64,000 nt of DNA from Spirochaetia bacterium (GCA_030041455.1 JASHNV010000146.1:10174-74173); one strand, 5' to 3'. Counted from the first letter of the stretch, positions 39,457-49,560 are shown. The notes: generated by a model from the letters alone, not told the origin. Program-made: numbers and translations.

Positions 39457-41204
39457 GTGAAGCTTCGAACACGGCTCGTCGTCACCTCGTTTCTCGCGCT
39501 TCTCATTCCGGTTCTCCTTTCCATTGCGGTCGCCGCGGCTATCGTCGTCGAAAAGAGCAGCCGGTCGCAGGAGCTCTATTTCCGAGCCGCGCTCGCGAGG
39601 ATCAGGCAGGACATCTCGGACACCGAGCAGCGCTACCGGGCGAGCATCTCGGGCCTCGCCACCGCGAGCTTCCTGGTCCACAAGCTCTACGTCTACAACA
39701 AGTACTGGAATTACATATCGAGCGACGTCCTCTCGGGCGACATCGCGGTGCTAAAGGACGAGCTGGAGAGCTACCTCCTTTCCGAGTCTATCGACTCGAT
39801 CGCCGTCTACCGCACCGAGGGCGATCACTACAAATCGGTGGTCGTGGTCGGCAACTCCACCTATATTCCGGACATCGTCGACCGTGACCAGCTCGGGCGC
39901 CTGTCCGGGCAGCCCGACTATCTCCAGATCTCCGACGGCATCTACGCGACCTTCTACATACCGGTCTTTTACGAAGGCAGGGAGATCGGACTCCTCGCGC
40001 TGCAGAAAGCCTTCAATCGCGGCTACTTCGAGAACCTCTCGCTTCGCTACAACCTCGGCATCGCGCTGTACGCCCAGGGGCTCTATCGGTACTCCTCGCT
40101 CCCCGGTCTCGCCGACGCGGGAGCGCTCTGGGCGAGGAATCATCCGGCAAACGGCGGATTTTTCACCGGCACCTACACCGATCGCAAGCGGGTCTACAAA
40201 TACGTGGGCTACTTCTTCCAGATGGGCGAGGACGCGAAGGGTTTCCTCTTCGTCGGCGGTCCGTCGATGACCGCCGACGACTGGTGGCGCACCTTCCTCA
40301 AGTTCGCGATGATTCCGCTTATCTGCGTCGCGGTCGCCACCATGCTTTTCATCTTCTGGGCGAGCGAGATCATCGGCCAGATCCGTGAGCTCCTCGGCGC
40401 GGTGGGGCAGGTCTCGCGCGGTCTCTACGACGTGAGGCTTCCGGTGCGGCGCTCCGACGAGTTCGGCGAGCTGTTCCGCGGCTTCACCCGAATGGCAAGC
40501 GACCTCGAGGAGAACAGGCGCCAGCTCGTCACCTCGGAGAAGATGGCGGCGATCGGAAGGTTCTCGGCCGGAGTCGCCCACGAGATCAACAACCCGCTCG
40601 GCATCATCCTCAATCACGTGCAGCTCCTGCGGTCCGGGAAGCTGTCGCCGCGGGAGGAGGGCGACTTTCTCGCGCGGATGGAGGCGGAGATCAAGCGCGT
40701 GAATCGGCTTCTCACCAACCTGCTGCATCACGCGACCGACGACGAGCTCGCCTTCAGCGATTTCGCGCTCGAGCCCGTCCTGAACGAGGTCGTCCAGCTT
40801 TTCGGCCCGAAGCTCCGCCTCATGGGAGTGAAGGTCCAGGCGGAGCACTTCCCGCCGAACCTGACCATCGAGGGAGACGCCGACGCGGTCAAGCAGGTCT
40901 TCTTCAACGTTCTGTACAATGCCCTGCAGGCCATCCACCATGGGCAGGGAATGATTCGGATCGGCGCCGAGGAGAACGGCGACGGCTTTCGCGTGCGGGT
41001 GAGCGACAACGGAGACGGGATGGACCGCACGACCCAGGATCGGGTCTTCGAGCCCTTCTTCACGAGCAAGAAGAGCGGCGGAACCGGCATCGGCCTCGCG
41101 CTGAGCCAGAAGATCATGAAGCAGCACGGAGGGACGATCAGCGTGGAAAGCGAGATCAACGTCGGCACCACCGTGCTCCTCTGGTTTCCGAAAAGGGACG
41201 TCGC

Positions 41205-41208
<4 letters not shown>
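39457..41208 (+). CDS. Sensor histidine kinase (N-terminal TM, periplasmic sensor domain, second TM, HAMP, HisKA, HATPase_c)
   Basis: H-box FSAGVAHEINNPL, N/G1/G2 boxes (NALQAI, DNGDGM, GGTGIGLAL). GTG 39457. Confidence 0.8.
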
Positions 41209-42506
<1,298 letters not shown>

Positions 42507-42651
42507 GGCTTCCGCGGCCCGCCGGGCCCGGATGGCTACTCGATTTTACTCAAATTGGGAAGAGGGTCCCCGCAGCTTCCCGTCATGAAGAGTACGAAGC
42601 GCTAACTCGTTCCAGGCAAACAGATTGAAATCGCAAAGATCCAGCCCGACT

Positions 42652-42667
42652 TGGCGTGTTTCTTGCT
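42652..42667 (+). promoter_or_regulatory. Sigma54 (-24/-12) promoter TGGCGTG-N4-TTGCT
   Basis: TGGC at 42652-42655 and TTGC at 42663-42666, GG-N10-GC spacing, about 80 nt upstream of binding-protein gene 1 and just downstream of the NtrC-type activator gene. Confidence 0.5.
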
Positions 42668-42745
42668 TAGCTATCCGGGAGGGCAGGAGGGGAGGTTCCT
42701 ACCACGAGACGGTTTTCGCTCGTTATCGCGTCGGTCGCGCTCGTT

Positions 42746-43705
42746 GTGGCGGCGTCGAGCCTCGAGGCGGCCGGAAGTAAGGAGGAGAGCGGCAAGCCGG
42801 TCGTCGTCGCCGCGACCGTTCGAGCCCGGCCGCATCGGCTCGTTTTCGCCATGGTTCCCAAGGGCATCCATCCCTACTTCGTCCCGGTCTACCAGGGCTT
42901 TCAGGCGGCCGCCGCGAAGTACGGGGTGGAAGCGGAGATGGACGCTCCGCCGAAGTTCGACGTCACGCTTCAAGTCAAGGTCATCGAGGACCTCATCGCG
43001 CGCGGAGTCGACGGCATCGCGGTGTCGGCCAACGACGATCTCGGGCTCGTCCCCGTGATCCACGAGGCGGTCCAGGCCGGCATCAAGGTCATCACCTTCG
43101 ACGCTCCCGCTCCGTCGACGGAGGCGCTGACCTACATCGGAACGGACAACGAGTCGGCGGGCTACGACGCGGGCAAGCGAATGGCAAGGATCATGGGCGG
43201 CCGGGGCGAGCTCGCCATTCTCCAGGGAGGCCTCGACGCCACGAACCTGAACCTGCGTACGAAGGGTTTCGAGCGGGCGCTTCACGAGGAGGCGCCCGGG
43301 ATCCGGGTGGTCGCCGTCGAGGACGAGGGAGGAGATTTCTCCGAGTCGATCAACAAGACCGAGCTGCTCCTCTCCGAGTACCCGAAGCTCACGGGGATTT
43401 TCTCGGTCTCGGCGGAGGGCGCGCCTGCCGCCGAGACCGTCATGAGGGAGCGAGGCGAGAAGGGGGAACTCGTCATCGCGGGGTTCGACGATCTGAAGGA
43501 TTCCGTAGACGGAATCCGCGAAGGTTTGATCGCCTTTTGCGTGGTCCAACGAACCTACTTGATGGGGTGGCTATCGGTCAAAGAGCTGATCGACGCCGTC
43601 AACGATCGGCCGATTCCGAAGGTTATCGATACCGGTGTGGTGTTCGTCGACCGGACGAACGTCGACACCTACATGAAAGAGATGGGGCCCGAGGCCGCGC
43701 AATAG
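42746..43705 (+). CDS. Periplasmic sugar-binding protein (PBP type 1, ribose/galactose-binding-like); start uncertain
   Basis: PBP1 fold (VFAMVPKG..., GVDGIAVS, ITFD, LAILQG..., GFDD). The only canonical start is GTG 42746, 52 nt after the SD. In-frame upstream codons from about 42704 encode a signal-peptide-like TTRRFSLVIASVALVVAASSLEAAG without ATG/GTG/TTG. Confidence 0.65.
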   Translation: MAASSLEAAGSKEESGKPVVVAATVRARPHRLVFAMVPKGIHPYFVPVYQGFQAAAAKYGVEAEMDAPPKFDVTLQVKVIEDLIARGVDGIAVSANDDLGLVPVIHEAVQAGIKVITFDAPAPSTEALTYIGTDNESAGYDAGKRMARIMGGRGELAILQGGLDATNLNLRTKGFERALHEEAPGIRVVAVEDEGGDFSESINKTELLLSEYPKLTGIFSVSAEGAPAAETVMRERGEKGELVIAGFDDLKDSVDGIREGLIAFCVVQRTYLMGWLSVKELIDAVNDRPIPKVIDTGVVFVDRTNVDTYMKEMGPEAAQ

Positions 43706-43785
43706 CGCAGGCGGCCTCGGGCCACGCGCAAATGAGATTGCCCCGTGTAGGGCAAGAAGAATTGATCCGAAGGAGGAAATAGACC

Positions 43786-44811
43786 ATGCGAGCGAGAAAC
43801 GTCTCGATCTTCGCCGCCCTTGCGGCGGCGGCAGTTCTCGTCCTTGCCGGCTGCGCCCCCTCTGCGAGCAAAGCCGCGAGTTCTCAGGCTGCGAGCACCA
43901 AGTGGGCGGCGGGCGTCCACATCGTCTTCTTCCCGGGCGGTCCGGAGGGCGGCGTCTTCGCCGTCAACGTCTACAACGGCGCAAAGCAGGCCGAAGAGGA
44001 CCTCGGCGTGAAGGTGGACTACGAGTGGTCGGACTGGGATCCCCAGAAGATGATTCAGCAGTTCCAGGAGGCGGTTGCGACGCATCCCGACGGCATAGCG
44101 GTCATGGGTCACCCGGGCGATGACGCGTTCGACGCGCTCATCAAGGACGCCGAGAGCAAGGGCATCATCGTGACGAGCCAGAACACGCCGCTCCCGAAGG
44201 CGGAGGCGGAGTTCCAGTCGAAGGGCTTCGGATACGTCGGTGCGCAGCTCTACCAGGCCGGCCACGACCTCGGAGCCGAGGCGGTGAAGCGCTTCGGTCT
44301 GAAGGCCGGCGACCGTGCGATGGTCTGGGGTCTCCTCTCGCAGCCGACACGCGGGGAGCGGACCAAAGGCGCGATCGACGCGCTGAAACAGGCCGGGCTG
44401 ACCGTCGACTACATCGAGATCGATCCGGCGACCAACAAGGACCCCGCGGCGGGCGCGCCGGTCTTCGCCGGCTACGTCTCCTCCCATCCGGACGTGAAGC
44501 TCGTCATCCCCGACCACGGCGGACTGACCGCGACTGCCGAGACCTACCTCAAGGCGGCGGGAAAGGGACCCGGGCAGATCCTCGTCGCCGGCTTTGACAT
44601 GTCGCCAGCGACGGTCGCCGCCATTCAGGGCGGCTGGACGGAGCTCGTGATCGACCAGCAGGAGTGGCTGCAGGGCTATCTGCCGATTCTCCAGATCGCG
44701 CTGACCAAGGTGTACGGGTTCTCGGGCCTGGACATCAACACGGGCGCGGGCTTCGTCGACAAGAGCAACGTCGATTTCATCGCGCCGCTTGCACAGCGGA
44801 ACATCCGATAG
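43786..44811 (+). CDS. ABC transporter sugar-binding lipoprotein (PBP type 1)
   Basis: Lipobox ...VLVLAGCAPS; PBP1 fold. ATG with AAGGAGG SD. Confidence 0.8.
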   Translation: MRARNVSIFAALAAAAVLVLAGCAPSASKAASSQAASTKWAAGVHIVFFPGGPEGGVFAVNVYNGAKQAEEDLGVKVDYEWSDWDPQKMIQQFQEAVATHPDGIAVMGHPGDDAFDALIKDAESKGIIVTSQNTPLPKAEAEFQSKGFGYVGAQLYQAGHDLGAEAVKRFGLKAGDRAMVWGLLSQPTRGERTKGAIDALKQAGLTVDYIEIDPATNKDPAAGAPVFAGYVSSHPDVKLVIPDHGGLTATAETYLKAAGKGPGQILVAGFDMSPATVAAIQGGWTELVIDQQEWLQGYLPILQIALTKVYGFSGLDINTGAGFVDKSNVDFIAPLAQRNIR

Positions 44812-44930
44812 ATTTTTCACGCGGACGGGCAGTGCCTTTGCGGCCCGTCCGCCCCATAGTACAATCAAGGGGTCGCGCGGGCGGCCGGTACAGGGAGACA
44901 TTTCCCGCGCTCGCGGCTGCGAGGTGGCAC

Positions 44931-45698
44931 ATGAGCAACGTTCTGACACTGAAAAACGTCTCGAAGACCTTCGGGGAAGTCGCGGCGCTTCACAACGTCA
45001 ACTTTCACGTCGGCGACAACGAGATCGTCGGGCTTCTCGGCGACAACGGCGCCGGGAAGTCGACGCTCGTGAAGATCATCACGGGCTACCATCAGCCGAA
45101 CCCCGGCGGGGAGCTCTTCTGGAAGAACGAGCGCGTCGAGCGCCTCACCGTCCCCAAGGCGCGCGACCTCGGGATCGAGGTGGTCTTTCAGGAGCGCGCG
45201 CTCGCCGACAAGCAGTCGCTGTGGCGGAATATCTTCATGGGCCGCGAGCTTTCCGACCGCCTGGGTCTTCTCGACGTGGCAAAGATGCGAAGCGAGACGC
45301 GCAGGCTCATGAACACCGCGATGGGATTCACGTCGTCCGCCGTTACGGCGGAGTCGACGGTGAAGACTTTTTCGGGCGGCGAGCGGCAGGGCGTCGCGAT
45401 AACCCGCGCGCTCTACTTCCAGGCCGAGCTCGTCATTCTCGACGAGCCGACGATGGGCCTCTCCCTCTCGGAGACGAGGAAATGCCTCGAGTTCGTCGAG
45501 GGCATCAAGAAGGCGGGAAAGGCGGCCATCTTCATCGACCACAATATCTTCCACGTCTACCCCGTAGTTGACCGCATCGTGGTGCTCGATCGCGGGACGA
45601 TCGCCGGGCAGTTCATGAAGAACGAGCTCTCGCTGCAGGAGCTCATCGACCGGCTCTATGTCGTCGCGCAGACCGGTCACCTCGAGAGCAAGAATTGA
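44931..45698 (+). CDS. ABC transporter ATP-binding protein (single NBD)
   Basis: Walker A GDNGAGKST, signature FSGGERQG, Walker B LVILDEPT. ATG 44931 after GAGGTGG. The track ORF's upstream part (from 44664) is discarded. Confidence 0.85.
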   Translation: MSNVLTLKNVSKTFGEVAALHNVNFHVGDNEIVGLLGDNGAGKSTLVKIITGYHQPNPGGELFWKNERVERLTVPKARDLGIEVVFQERALADKQSLWRNIFMGRELSDRLGLLDVAKMRSETRRLMNTAMGFTSSAVTAESTVKTFSGGERQGVAITRALYFQAELVILDEPTMGLSLSETRKCLEFVEGIKKAGKAAIFIDHNIFHVYPVVDRIVVLDRGTIAGQFMKNELSLQELIDRLYVVAQTGHLESKN

Positions 45699-45721: not shown

Positions 45722-46729
<1,008 letters not shown>

Positions 46730-46796
46730 GCGGCGGAGGGACTTCGAAGCCGGTTCGCTTGCATTCTTGAAGTCGGTCAACTACACTTTGGGTGAG

Positions 46797-47948
46797 ATGG
46801 TCGAAAGGCATTCCGCTCCGCCGCCGCGAAGGGAGGACGTCCTGAGCTCCGCTCCGAGCAAGGTCCTCGCCGGCATCGCGCACGAGCTTCGCACGCCGGT
46901 GAGCGGCATCTCCGGGATGGTCGCGCTCCTCGAAAAGACCGGGCTCACGGTCGAGCAGCGCCGCTACGTCGACCTCGTCGCCGCGTCGGCGGCCTCGCTC
47001 AGACATCTCGTGGATCAGCTCCTCGACTTCGCCGGGCTTCGCGAGGGCTCCTCCGCCCCCGTTCGGGAGCCCTTCGAGCTCAAGGCGGCGATCGAGGGCG
47101 CGGTCGCCCTTCTCGTGCCGGAGGCCGCGGAGAAGGGTCTCTCGCTCACAGTCGCCGTGGAGAGCGGGCTCGACGTCTGGGTGGCGGGGGATCCCTTCGG
47201 CCTGAGGCAGATCGTTTCCAACCTCGTGGTGAACGCGGTCAAGTTTACCGAGCGCGGCGGAATCGGGGTCGCGGCCCGACTCGACGGACGGAGCGGGGAG
47301 TCGATACTCGTCGAGCTCGCGGTGACCGACAGCGGAATCGGCATACCGGCCGAGAAGCTCGGCCCGATCTTTGACGGCTTCACGCAGCTGGAAGCCGGGG
47401 CGCGCAATCCGCGCAGGGGCCTCGGGCTCGGGCTCTCGATCGTGCATGAGGTCGCGTCGAGAATGGGCGGCCTCGTGGAGGTCGACAGCGCCGTGGGGAG
47501 GGGAAGCACGTTCACCGTCCAGCTTCCCTTTCGACTCCATCCCGGCCGGAAGGCTCAGGCGTCCGGGGGCTCGATTCTCATTGCCGAAGACGAAGCGGTC
47601 AATCGGATGTACATCGATGCCCTCCTCGCGCGAAACGGCTATCGTACCACCATCGTCTCAAGCGGCGTCGAGGCCGTGGAGGCCTTCGGCGAGGGGCGCT
47701 ACGATCTGATCCTGATGGACCTTGCGATGCCGGAGGTGGGCGGCGCCGAAGCCGCGCGCGCGATTCGCGAGCGCGAGCTCGTGCGCGGCGGCCACGTCCC
47801 CATCATCGCCCTCACGGCGTACGTTCATCGGGAGGAGATCGACCGCTGCTTGGGCGCCGGAATGGACGCGTGGATGACGAAGCCCTTCGCCGAGGACGAG
47901 CTTCTCGAGAGGATAGAAGCCCTTCTTGATCGGCGTCCCTGCGGATGA
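46797..47948 (+). CDS. Cytoplasmic hybrid histidine kinase (HisKA + HATPase_c + REC), no sensor/TM domain
   Basis: H-box IAHELRTPVSGI, G-boxes (DSGIGI, GLGLGLSIV), C-terminal receiver (ILIAEDE...LILMDLAMP...TKP). ATG 46797 chosen over TTG 46767; low confidence. Confidence 0.7.
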   Translation: MVERHSAPPPRREDVLSSAPSKVLAGIAHELRTPVSGISGMVALLEKTGLTVEQRRYVDLVAASAASLRHLVDQLLDFAGLREGSSAPVREPFELKAAIEGAVALLVPEAAEKGLSLTVAVESGLDVWVAGDPFGLRQIVSNLVVNAVKFTERGGIGVAARLDGRSGESILVELAVTDSGIGIPAEKLGPIFDGFTQLEAGARNPRRGLGLGLSIVHEVASRMGGLVEVDSAVGRGSTFTVQLPFRLHPGRKAQASGGSILIAEDEAVNRMYIDALLARNGYRTTIVSSGVEAVEAFGEGRYDLILMDLAMPEVGGAEAARAIRERELVRGGHVPIIALTAYVHREEIDRCLGAGMDAWMTKPFAEDELLERIEALLDRRPCG

Positions 47949-48501
47949 CCTTCCCGCGGGGATGCCGGACCATCCGTTCGAGCGCGCGGCACGCCGCCGA
48001 CTCGGATCCTGGTCGAGGCGGCCGGGCGCTCGGAAGCGGTCCACATGATCAACTTCTCGAGGCGCAACGCCTCGGCTCCGCGGGGTCGGGAGGAGCTCTC
48101 CCGCTTGGACGTGGCGGCTCGGCGCCCCGGCGCGCTCAGGCGAAATCGGCTGCCACGCGTACGACCGGCGAGCTTCCTCGCGGGCGGCGCCCCGGGCTCG
48201 ATCCACGCGTCAGGCGGGCCGCCGGCCTCCTACCCGCGAGCTCGTCAGGGCCTTCGGTGACCGCGGCGCGGCGGGAATCGATCTCGCGCGCTCTCGGGGA
48301 GCTACCGCCTCCCCTGCGCCGCCGGTCCGCAGGCGAGGGAGTGGAGGGAGGTGACCTGCGCGCCGACGTCCTCCAATTACGGGCGCGCGACCACGACCGT
48401 CGAGAGGACGAATCGGACGTTGTTCGTTGCGGCTACGCGGTCCAAGCGCACCTCGAGGCGGACCGAAGGGGCTCCCGGGTGCGAGCGAGCGCGGAGGCGC
48501 C

Positions 48502-49560
48502 GTGAGAAAGATCAGAATCGGCATGATCGGCGCCGGGGCGATCGCGCCCATGCACTGCCGCGGGATTCTCTCCCACCCGTCGGGAGAGCTCGTCGCGCTC
48601 GCCGACTCAAGCCGCGAGCGGGCCGACGCGCTTGCGAGGGAGTTTCGCATTCCGACGGTCTACCGCGATTACCGCAAGCTCATCGACGACCGCTCGATCG
48701 AGGCGGTCAGCGTCGCGCTTCCGAACTTCCTCCACGCTCCGGTCACGATCGCGGCCCTCGAGGCCGGAAAGCACGTTCTCCTCGAGAAGCCCTTCGCCAC
48801 GAGCGAGGCGGAGGCGCTCTCGGTGATCGGAGCCGCGGAGAGGAGCGGGAGGATCCTGACCGTCGGCATGAACCAGCGCTTCACCGTCGAGGCGCAGACC
48901 GTTCGCGCGCTCGTCGAGCGAGGCGAGCTCGGCGAGGTCTATCACCTGAAGGCGCATTGGACCCGCCGCTCGGGAGCGCCGAGGTTCGGGACCTGGTTCG
49001 CCGATCGAAAGCGCTCCGGCGGCGGCGCGCTCCTCGATATCGGCGTCCACATGCTCGATCTCGCGCTCAGCCTGATCGGGAACTTCTCTCCGCTCGCCGT
49101 GAGCGGCTTTTCCTACTCCAAGTTCGGCAGCCGCGGGCTCGGCGAAGGCAGCTGGGGTAAGTCCGATCCCGGCGAGCGGATCTTCGACGTCGACGACTTC
49201 GCCGGAGCGCTCGTCAGGCTCCAAGGAGGCGTCACGCTCGAGCTCGAGGCGTCGTGGGCGCGGCACCAGGCCGCGCCCGATTCCCGAGATGTCGAGCTTT
49301 TCGGCACCGAGGGGGGAGCGACGGTCTTTCCGCCGCGCCTTTTCAAGGGTCTCTCAGGCGGCCGCGGATATGAGACGATCGAGCTCCAAGACGGGCCGCT
49401 CCGCTACCCGGGCGCCGACCGCCACCACAACTGGATCGACGCGATCCTCGGGGTGGCCGGGATCGAGTGTACGCTCTCTCAGGCTCTCGCGGTTCAGCGG
49501 ATCATCGACGCCGTCTACCGTTCGGCGGAAAACGGCCGGGAGACGAGGCTCGAGGACTAG
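48502..49560 (+). CDS. Gfo/Idh/MocA-family NAD(P)-dependent oxidoreductase
   Basis: GTG 48502 after GGAGG. IGMIGAGAIA Rossmann motif, EKP motif (LLEKPFA). About 352 aa. Confidence 0.8.
   Translation: MRKIRIGMIGAGAIAPMHCRGILSHPSGELVALADSSRERADALAREFRIPTVYRDYRKLIDDRSIEAVSVALPNFLHAPVTIAALEAGKHVLLEKPFATSEAEALSVIGAAERSGRILTVGMNQRFTVEAQTVRALVERGELGEVYHLKAHWTRRSGAPRFGTWFADRKRSGGGALLDIGVHMLDLALSLIGNFSPLAVSGFSYSKFGSRGLGEGSWGKSDPGERIFDVDDFAGALVRLQGGVTLELEASWARHQAAPDSRDVELFGTEGGATVFPPRLFKGLSGGRGYETIELQDGPLRYPGADRHHNWIDAILGVAGIECTLSQALAVQRIIDAVYRSAENGRETRLED

Follow-up and report, generated by a model that had tools for sequence, protein, structure and literature searches.

A candidate ACG start codon in the first binding-protein gene of a Spirochaetia sugar transporter operon

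The stretch of DNA analysed here, 64,000 nucleotides (nt) of a Spirochaetia bacterium (GCA_030041455.1, JASHNV010000146.1:10174-74173; hereafter the window, with positions counted from its first letter), carries what appears to be a sugar ATP-binding cassette (ABC) transporter operon, and the first gene of this operon, encoding a periplasmic binding protein (binding-protein 1), has no canonical start codon ahead of its predicted signal peptide. With moderate confidence, we propose that the Shine-Dalgarno (SD) tract of this gene directs initiation at a near-cognate ACG codon, position 42704, and that a Sec precursor is made. The features on which this proposal draws, together with the neighbouring genes, are collected in Table 1.

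Table 1. Positions of the genes and sequence features at the binding-protein locus (SD, Shine-Dalgarno; CDS, coding sequence; HTH, helix-turn-helix; aa, amino acids).
Feature	Position	Strand	Basis or remark
Sensor histidine kinase gene (HAMP, HisKA, HATPase_c), first of the upstream regulatory pair	39457-41208	+	Pfam
Sigma-54-dependent response regulator gene, NtrC/AtoC type (receiver, Sigma54_activat, Fis-type HTH)	41205-42506	+	Pfam, NCBIfam
Sigma-54 promoter TGGCGTGTTTCTTGCT; GG 42653-54 (-24), GC 42665-66 (-12)	42652-42667	+	Pattern match, conserved in orthologous loci
In-frame TAG, beyond which the binding-protein frame cannot start further upstream	42668-42670	+	Sequence reading
SD tract GGGAGGGCAGGAGGGGAGGT, purine-rich	42677-42696	+	Sequence, DNA alignment A3
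ACG, proposed initiation codon, preceding RRFSL	42704-42706	+	DNA alignment A3, protein alignment, SD spacing
Binding-protein 1 CDS as proposed, 333 codons + TAG	42704-43705	+	Pfam PF13407, orthologues
Predicted Sec signal peptide: (M/T)RR, FSLVIASVALVVAA, SSLEAA, cleavage before GSKEE	42704-42772	+	Translation, hydropathy, alignment
GTG at which the public call P0001 (319 aa) begins	42746-42748	+	Inside the hydrophobic core, without an SD
Peripla_BP_4 domain of binding-protein 1	42851-43603	+	PF13407
Second binding-protein gene, ATG start, GGAGG SD	43786-44811	+	Pfam, start scan
ABC transporter ATPase gene (ABC_tran), ATG start, GAGGTGG SD	44931-45698	+	Pfam
ABC transporter permease gene (BPD_transp_2)	45722-46729	+	Pfam

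The open frame of binding-protein 1 spans 42671-43705 (344 codons), and its translation from 42671 begins LSGRAGGEVPTTRRFSLVIASVALVV; residues 61-311 match PF13407 (216.5 bits, cut-off 35.1; E = 5.9e-64). A preliminary description of this DNA had stated that no ATG, GTG or TTG lies in frame between the TAG at 42668 and the GTG at 42746, and the sequence does read so: after the TAG (42668-70), GTG 42746 is the earliest of these codons in the binding-protein frame. When 42664-42743 was scanned in all frames, no ATG, GTG or TTG was found. The in-frame near-cognate codons before GTG 42746 are AGG 42680, ACG 42704 and ATC 42725 only, and of these only the ACG stands at SD spacing. Among the window genes that were checked, all except binding-protein 1 have a canonical start near the 5' end, mostly with an SD, while neither GTG 42746 nor the ATG at 42851 is preceded by one. 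Some positions in the preliminary description have to be amended: the codon at 42651, where an out-of-frame ATG had been placed, is TTG; the SD tract ends at 42695/6 rather than 42694; and the distance from the SD to GTG 42746 is 50 nt, not 52 nt.

A strong SD had also been described ahead of the binding-protein frame, and this was borne out. The tract contains three copies of GGAGG (at 42678, 42686 and 42691), of which the last, within GGAGGT 42691-96, is probably the working copy; the spacer between its GGAGG core (42691-95) and ACG 42704 is 8 nt, within the functional range of ~5-10 nt. SDs are in general use here, as the other window genes commonly carry GGAGG, AGGAG or GAGG no more than ~15 nt upstream of a candidate start codon. 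At 66.6% GC, GGAGG is frequent in the window (336 copies on both strands), and with three further triple GGAGG clusters present we downgraded the SD cluster as stand-alone evidence. A run of 25 start-less codons would arise by chance with P ~0.27, as calculated from the operon's own codon usage. The start gap and the GGAGG are thus each unremarkable alone; what carries the case is that several features coincide at this site, namely a unique sigma-54 match, an SD at ideal spacing, a homologous signal peptide and an ACG aligned on the orthologous start. The leader gave no Rfam match at E <= 1, and its predicted fold was no better than that of shuffled sequence (z = 0.89).

The sigma-54 promoter, whose GG-N10-GC elements fit TGGCAC-N5-TTGCW, is the sole match to TGGC-N7-TTGCW on either strand of the 64 kilobase window (0.23 expected by chance), it lies 146 nt downstream of the end of the NtrC-type activator gene, and the element was found in at least 24 orthologous loci. 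From standard sigma-54 geometry (~12 nt after the -12 GC), we infer a transcription start at ~42678, which would give a 26-nt leader, most of it SD tract. A mini open reading frame (ORF) of four codons (GTG TTT CTT GCT TAG, 42656-42670) lies in the binding-protein frame inside the promoter; lying ahead of the predicted transcription start and lacking an SD, it is probably meaningless.

Translation from the ACG gives (T/M)RRFSLVIASVALVVAASSLEAAGSKEES, and the precursor can be written (M)RRFSLVIASVALVVAASSLEAA/G, the slash marking the predicted cleavage. It comprises two Arg residues, a 14-residue hydrophobic core with a Kyte-Doolittle peak of 3.05 over residues 6-16, and an A-x-A-like c-region; cleavage is predicted at ~42772 and the predicted mature N-terminus is (A)GSKEESGKPVVVAATVR. 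In the protein alignment, the Thr(ACG)-Arg-Arg of the window stands over Met-(Lys/Arg) of the orthologues, and a conserved G-x-[RK]-E follows the cleavage site. Hydropathy and the alignment with orthologue signal peptides thus agree with the earlier view that a typical signal peptide follows the SD in frame, and this export signal precedes the Peripla_BP_4 domain only if translation starts at or near 42704. The accompanying suggestion that TRRFSL resembles a twin-arginine (Tat) motif did not hold up. Scans of the full open frame against Pfam and NCBIfam returned no Tat-signal family at E <= 0.001; of the S/T-R-R-x-F-L-K motif the window has only R-R-F-S-L-V; and the RR is not conserved, orthologues carrying KK, a single R or PNHR in its place. 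Tat export was considered and rejected, with an n-region of ~3 residues (limited by TAG 42668 and the SD) and a strongly hydrophobic h-region.

Further information on the start came from 76 related loci collected by protein search and genome scan, the closest of which lie in Spirochaetia metagenome-assembled genomes (MAGs); the orthologous proteins are 60-76% identical to binding-protein 1. An automated scan of 71 loci assigned ATG (50 loci), GTG (12) or TTG (9) as the start before the signal peptide, with the reservation that some distant loci were given a codon too far upstream. No interpretable orthologous locus lacks a canonical start directly before the signal peptide, and none uses ACG. 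The most informative comparison is the DNA alignment A3 with L008 and L015, two loci of one Spirochaetia MAG that share the leader architecture of the window: they have the sigma-54 promoter (TTGGC...TGC) and the SD (AAGGAG) in common with it, and CTACC ACG AGACGG of the window stands over CCACC TTG AGACGG, so that the ACG falls exactly on the homologous start codon. The more distant loci L062 and L064 have GGAGGTTTCTTAA-ATG, with an 8-nt spacing equal to that of GGAGGTTCCTACC-ACG in the window. Relative to L008/L015, the window SD (42683-42696) has ~6 extra nt, GGGAGG, which give the tandem GGAGG copies; to judge from the alignment, the SD core seems to have been duplicated in tandem, and such an expansion may compensate for a weak start codon.

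A separate observation concerns the leaders of this family. In most of the closest orthologues the start codon follows the -12 GC by only 10-25 nt, without an SD (L004-L007, L009, L011, L013, L016-L018, L020, L022, L023, L069, L074, L084-L086), and some of these genes start with TTG or GTG; a longer leader with an SD is limited to the window, L008/L015 and L062/L064. Judged by promoter position, the short-leader mRNAs would be leaderless or nearly so, and leaderless sigma-54 transcripts, if real, would be unusual.

About 15 of the 120 best protein matches are annotated at 285-290 aa, and ~1/8 of the database orthologues at 285-305 aa, without a signal peptide. The locus L010, from a nanopore MAG, has two frameshifts of a kind typical of such assemblies that explain its short annotation, and at the loci of P0029, P0096, P0015 and P0103 an in-frame ATG, GTG or TTG and a signal peptide lie upstream of the called start. 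In all cases examined, the short annotations are mis-calls or frameshifted assemblies. The preliminary description had raised the case of orthologues that lack a signal peptide; none was found, the short ones that were checked being artefacts. Many public calls start at a conserved internal Met (MVPKG) or at another downstream codon (P0015, P0029, P0085, P0096, P0103 and about 15 others of 285-305 aa), and the loci of mis-called short family members include L007, L010 and L082-L086, where the true starts lie upstream and have no SD.

To the possibility that the base itself is wrong, three other contigs speak directly. The exact 319-aa P0001 protein is encoded also on L001, L002 and L003, which come from two NCBI MAG assemblies (GCA_030049285.1 and GCA_030048495.1) and a Logan assembly of SRR21679867. 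All three match the window base for base over 42577-42792, ACG included, while they differ from it at 13, 9 and 7 positions, respectively, and from one another by single-nucleotide polymorphisms (SNPs). Because the same ACG occurs in four independently assembled, distinct haplotypes from different samples, an assembly or homopolymer error is excluded in practice, and the indel error once considered for this site can be set aside. A programmed shift, also suggested earlier, fared no better, as no canonical start exists in any frame from the predicted transcription start to 42743. No ATG allele came to light: a scan of JGI metagenome contigs for GAGGTTCCTACCANGAGACGGTTTTCGC (variants of the site and the ATG allele) returned nothing, the 319-aa form is the only one in the protein database, where its cluster has one member, and a look-up via the neighbouring regulator returned the same two MAG contigs. 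Positions 1-138 of L002 (which would correspond to window 40899-41036) do not match the window, and represent either a chimeric contig end or a strain-specific rearrangement of the kinase gene.

The haplotypes also reveal how the gene is evolving. Across the four, the binding-protein 1 gene has 8 distinct SNPs and all 8 are synonymous, an outcome with a neutral probability of ~2e-5 to 2e-4 (taking 25% synonymous sites, or 33% if only transitions are counted). Over 40604-44461, which covers kinase, regulator and both binding proteins, 25 of 25 coding SNPs are synonymous, and the only non-coding SNP is intergenic, at 42570. Divergence of the mature protein was compared with that of its neighbours at 19 syntenic orthologous loci: the ratio of binding-protein 1 to the regulator is 1.02 for the window and 1.06 for other lineages, and the ratio of binding-protein 1 to binding-protein 2 is 1.33 and 1.26, respectively. 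The 333-codon frame is intact and full length relative to orthologues, with no frameshift or stop. Constraint has not been relaxed over the long term; the gene evolves under purifying selection. The tandem pair of binding-protein genes is syntenic in at least 19 orthologous loci, and in nearly all lineages the second binding protein is the more conserved of the two (76-84% to orthologues, compared with 70-74% for binding-protein 1).

Of the ways to account for the missing start, the preliminary description had offered a non-canonical codon such as ACG 42704, and this is the explanation that gained ground, through the SD spacing, the A3 alignment and the purifying selection on the gene. Under this proposal, binding-protein 1 would be the first gene of a sigma-54-driven sugar ABC transporter operon transcribed from ~42678, and the very strong SD (GGAGGT 42691-96) would position the 30S subunit for initiation at the ACG, 8 nt past the GGAGG core, most likely with initiator Met-tRNA. 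The signal peptide would then be cut at ~42772 to leave a normal periplasmic binding protein. An ACG reporter in E. coli, examined by mass spectrometry, gave N-terminal Met and some Thr (10.1101/063800). Since the signal peptide is removed, the first residue would have no effect on the mature protein, and the codon would matter only for the level of expression. As ACG initiates poorly in the bacteria that have been tested, each mRNA probably yields little protein, unless this lineage tolerates such starts better, with the duplicated SD perhaps compensating in part.

Several observations weigh against this proposal. Binding proteins are usually the most abundant component of a transporter. ACG is among 57 codons that initiate in E. 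coli at 0.1-1% of AUG, making it a very poor start, and it is not among the annotated starts of the well-annotated genomes surveyed in the same study (10.1101/063800); when AUG was changed to ACG in T7 0.3, protein synthesis was severely cut (PMC5499595). The haplotypes, moreover, number only four and belong to one species, and there is no SNP in 42571-42792 and none within 89 nt of the ACG, so that a recent start-loss allele could have spread by recombination onto older haplotypes.

Such an allele, very recent and hypomorphic or null, is the main alternative. It holds that an ancestral ATG became ACG, that little or no useful protein is now made, that the loss is tolerated thanks to the second binding protein and that the allele is too young to have decayed. 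The weakness of ACG in tested bacteria, its use by no orthologue and the second binding-protein gene that directly follows with a normal ATG and SD would all fit, and the synonymous SNPs, given their distance from the ACG, could predate the mutation. We nevertheless consider it unlikely, because the ACG is common to four haplotypes whose 8 SNPs in the gene include no nonsynonymous change, 333 codons are free of frameshifts and stops, the rate is not accelerated relative to the two neighbouring genes, and the SD is not only intact exactly 8 nt upstream but even expanded; in addition, the retention of the tandem pair in 19 syntenic loci means that the second copy does not look redundant. Decidedly improbable, in our view, is translation from GTG 42746, which would produce the 319-aa protein with its n-region and most of its h-region gone, beginning MAASSLEAAGSK or AASSLEAAGSK and located in the cytoplasm. 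This GTG is the first canonical in-frame start and is the one used by the P0001 call, but it has no SD in a genome that uses SDs routinely, it falls midway through a hydrophobic core that can be aligned with the signal peptides of the orthologues, and a signal peptide is encoded in every interpretable orthologue. A periplasmic binding protein cannot serve an ABC importer without export, which also counts against this start; the start in the public call is probably a mis-call.

The remaining alternatives carry little weight. Activation of the ACG into an efficient start by a lineage-specific factor, whether C-to-U editing or relaxed proofreading through an unusual initiation factor 3 (IF3) or initiator tRNA, is very improbable; relaxed proofreading, if true, would lead to ACG starts elsewhere in the genome, and the other window genes that were checked show no such habit. 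The window contains no tRNA genes, so there is no initiator tRNA there to inspect. We give even less credence to a special mechanism of another kind, by which C-to-U editing to AUG, frameshifting, transcriptional slippage or Tat export from a longer N-terminus would account for the site. C-to-U mRNA editing is not known from bacteria, which counts against editing. Plant organelles do edit ACG to AUG (PMC9845219), and TRRFSL is loosely like S/T-R-R-x-F-L-K, but a shift would require a canonical start past the promoter, which every frame lacks, the TAG at 42668 bars a longer N-terminus, the scans yielded no Tat family and the h-region is too hydrophobic for Tat, and the leader has neither an Rfam match nor unusual structure. 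Least credible of all is a sequencing or assembly artefact in which 42705 is really T or an indel hides a normal start: the source is a MAG and orthologous nanopore MAGs (L010) are frameshifted in the same region, but the four independent assemblies agree over 42577-42792 while differing at SNPs elsewhere, and the frame is continuous and homologous from 42704 on, with no start in the alternative frames.

Beyond the permease gene, the operon continues over 46767-49560 with a hybrid histidine kinase/receiver gene, a 186-aa ORF (47945-48505) that has no Pfam match, and a Gfo/Idh/MocA oxidoreductase gene. In the assignment of a ligand, all NCBIfam equivalog scores were far under their cut-offs; the downstream genes, together with weak matches to rhizopine and rhamnose binding proteins, hint at a substrate of the inositol-like or deoxy-sugar type. 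The 119-nt spacer that separates the second binding-protein gene from the ATPase gene contains a 9-bp GC-rich hairpin (CGGACGGGC, 12-nt loop, GCCCGTCCG; 44822-44851), which is not followed by a T-run. By stabilising or attenuating the transcript, this hairpin may determine how much binding protein is made relative to transporter.

If confirmed, the gene would be a natural bacterial example of an ACG start kept under selection, and it would show that a gene with a strong SD can survive losing its canonical start. ACG is not considered by standard gene finders; here the missed start resulted in a truncated, signal-less public call of 319 aa, from which predictions of localisation and function would be wrong. 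Cleavage of the signal peptide hides such starts from ordinary N-terminal proteomics, and they may therefore be under-counted. That method sees only the cleaved mature end (cf. PMC13515050), an end that still shows whether the signal peptide was made. The claim concerns a single gene of an uncultured organism, and its reach is limited accordingly.

How does this locus compare with known systems? In its general build, binding-protein 1 resembles the binding proteins of CUT2-family sugar ABC transporters (Peripla_BP_4; ribose, rhamnose and rhizopine type), with which it shares the domain, a predicted signal peptide and adjacent ATPase and permease genes, and the upstream kinase, NtrC-type activator and sigma-54 promoter are as in CUT2-family systems under two-component and sigma-54 control; it is the start codon that is unusual. 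Start-loss pseudogenes are similar in that a point mutation has removed the canonical start that orthologues have, but the window gene has no further lesions, nonsynonymous polymorphism or rate acceleration. Plant plastid and mitochondrial ACG starts likewise present a genomic ACG where the start of a conserved gene belongs; these, however, rely on organellar editing factors, and we know of no organellar-type editing system in bacteria. The closest engineered parallels are the E. coli 64-codon reporters and the T7 0.3 AUG-to-ACG mutant, in which a strong SD is followed by ACG and initiation occurs there, mostly inserting Met; their output is strongly reduced, whereas the ACG of the window is a natural allele under purifying selection in a wild population.

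Natural near-cognate starts exist in bacteria, including AUU in E. coli infC and pcnB and annotated CUG, AUC and AUA; ACG, to our knowledge, is outside the start set of genetic-code table 11. Like these starts, the ACG differs from AUG by one base and stands behind a normal SD, low efficiency is expected of it and standard gene finders miss it. Unlike them, it is mismatched at the middle codon position, and nothing at binding-protein 1 suggests autoregulation in the manner of infC. We conclude that the ACG described here probably joins the known class of near-cognate bacterial starts, with a codon absent from the annotated starts surveyed in 10.1101/063800.

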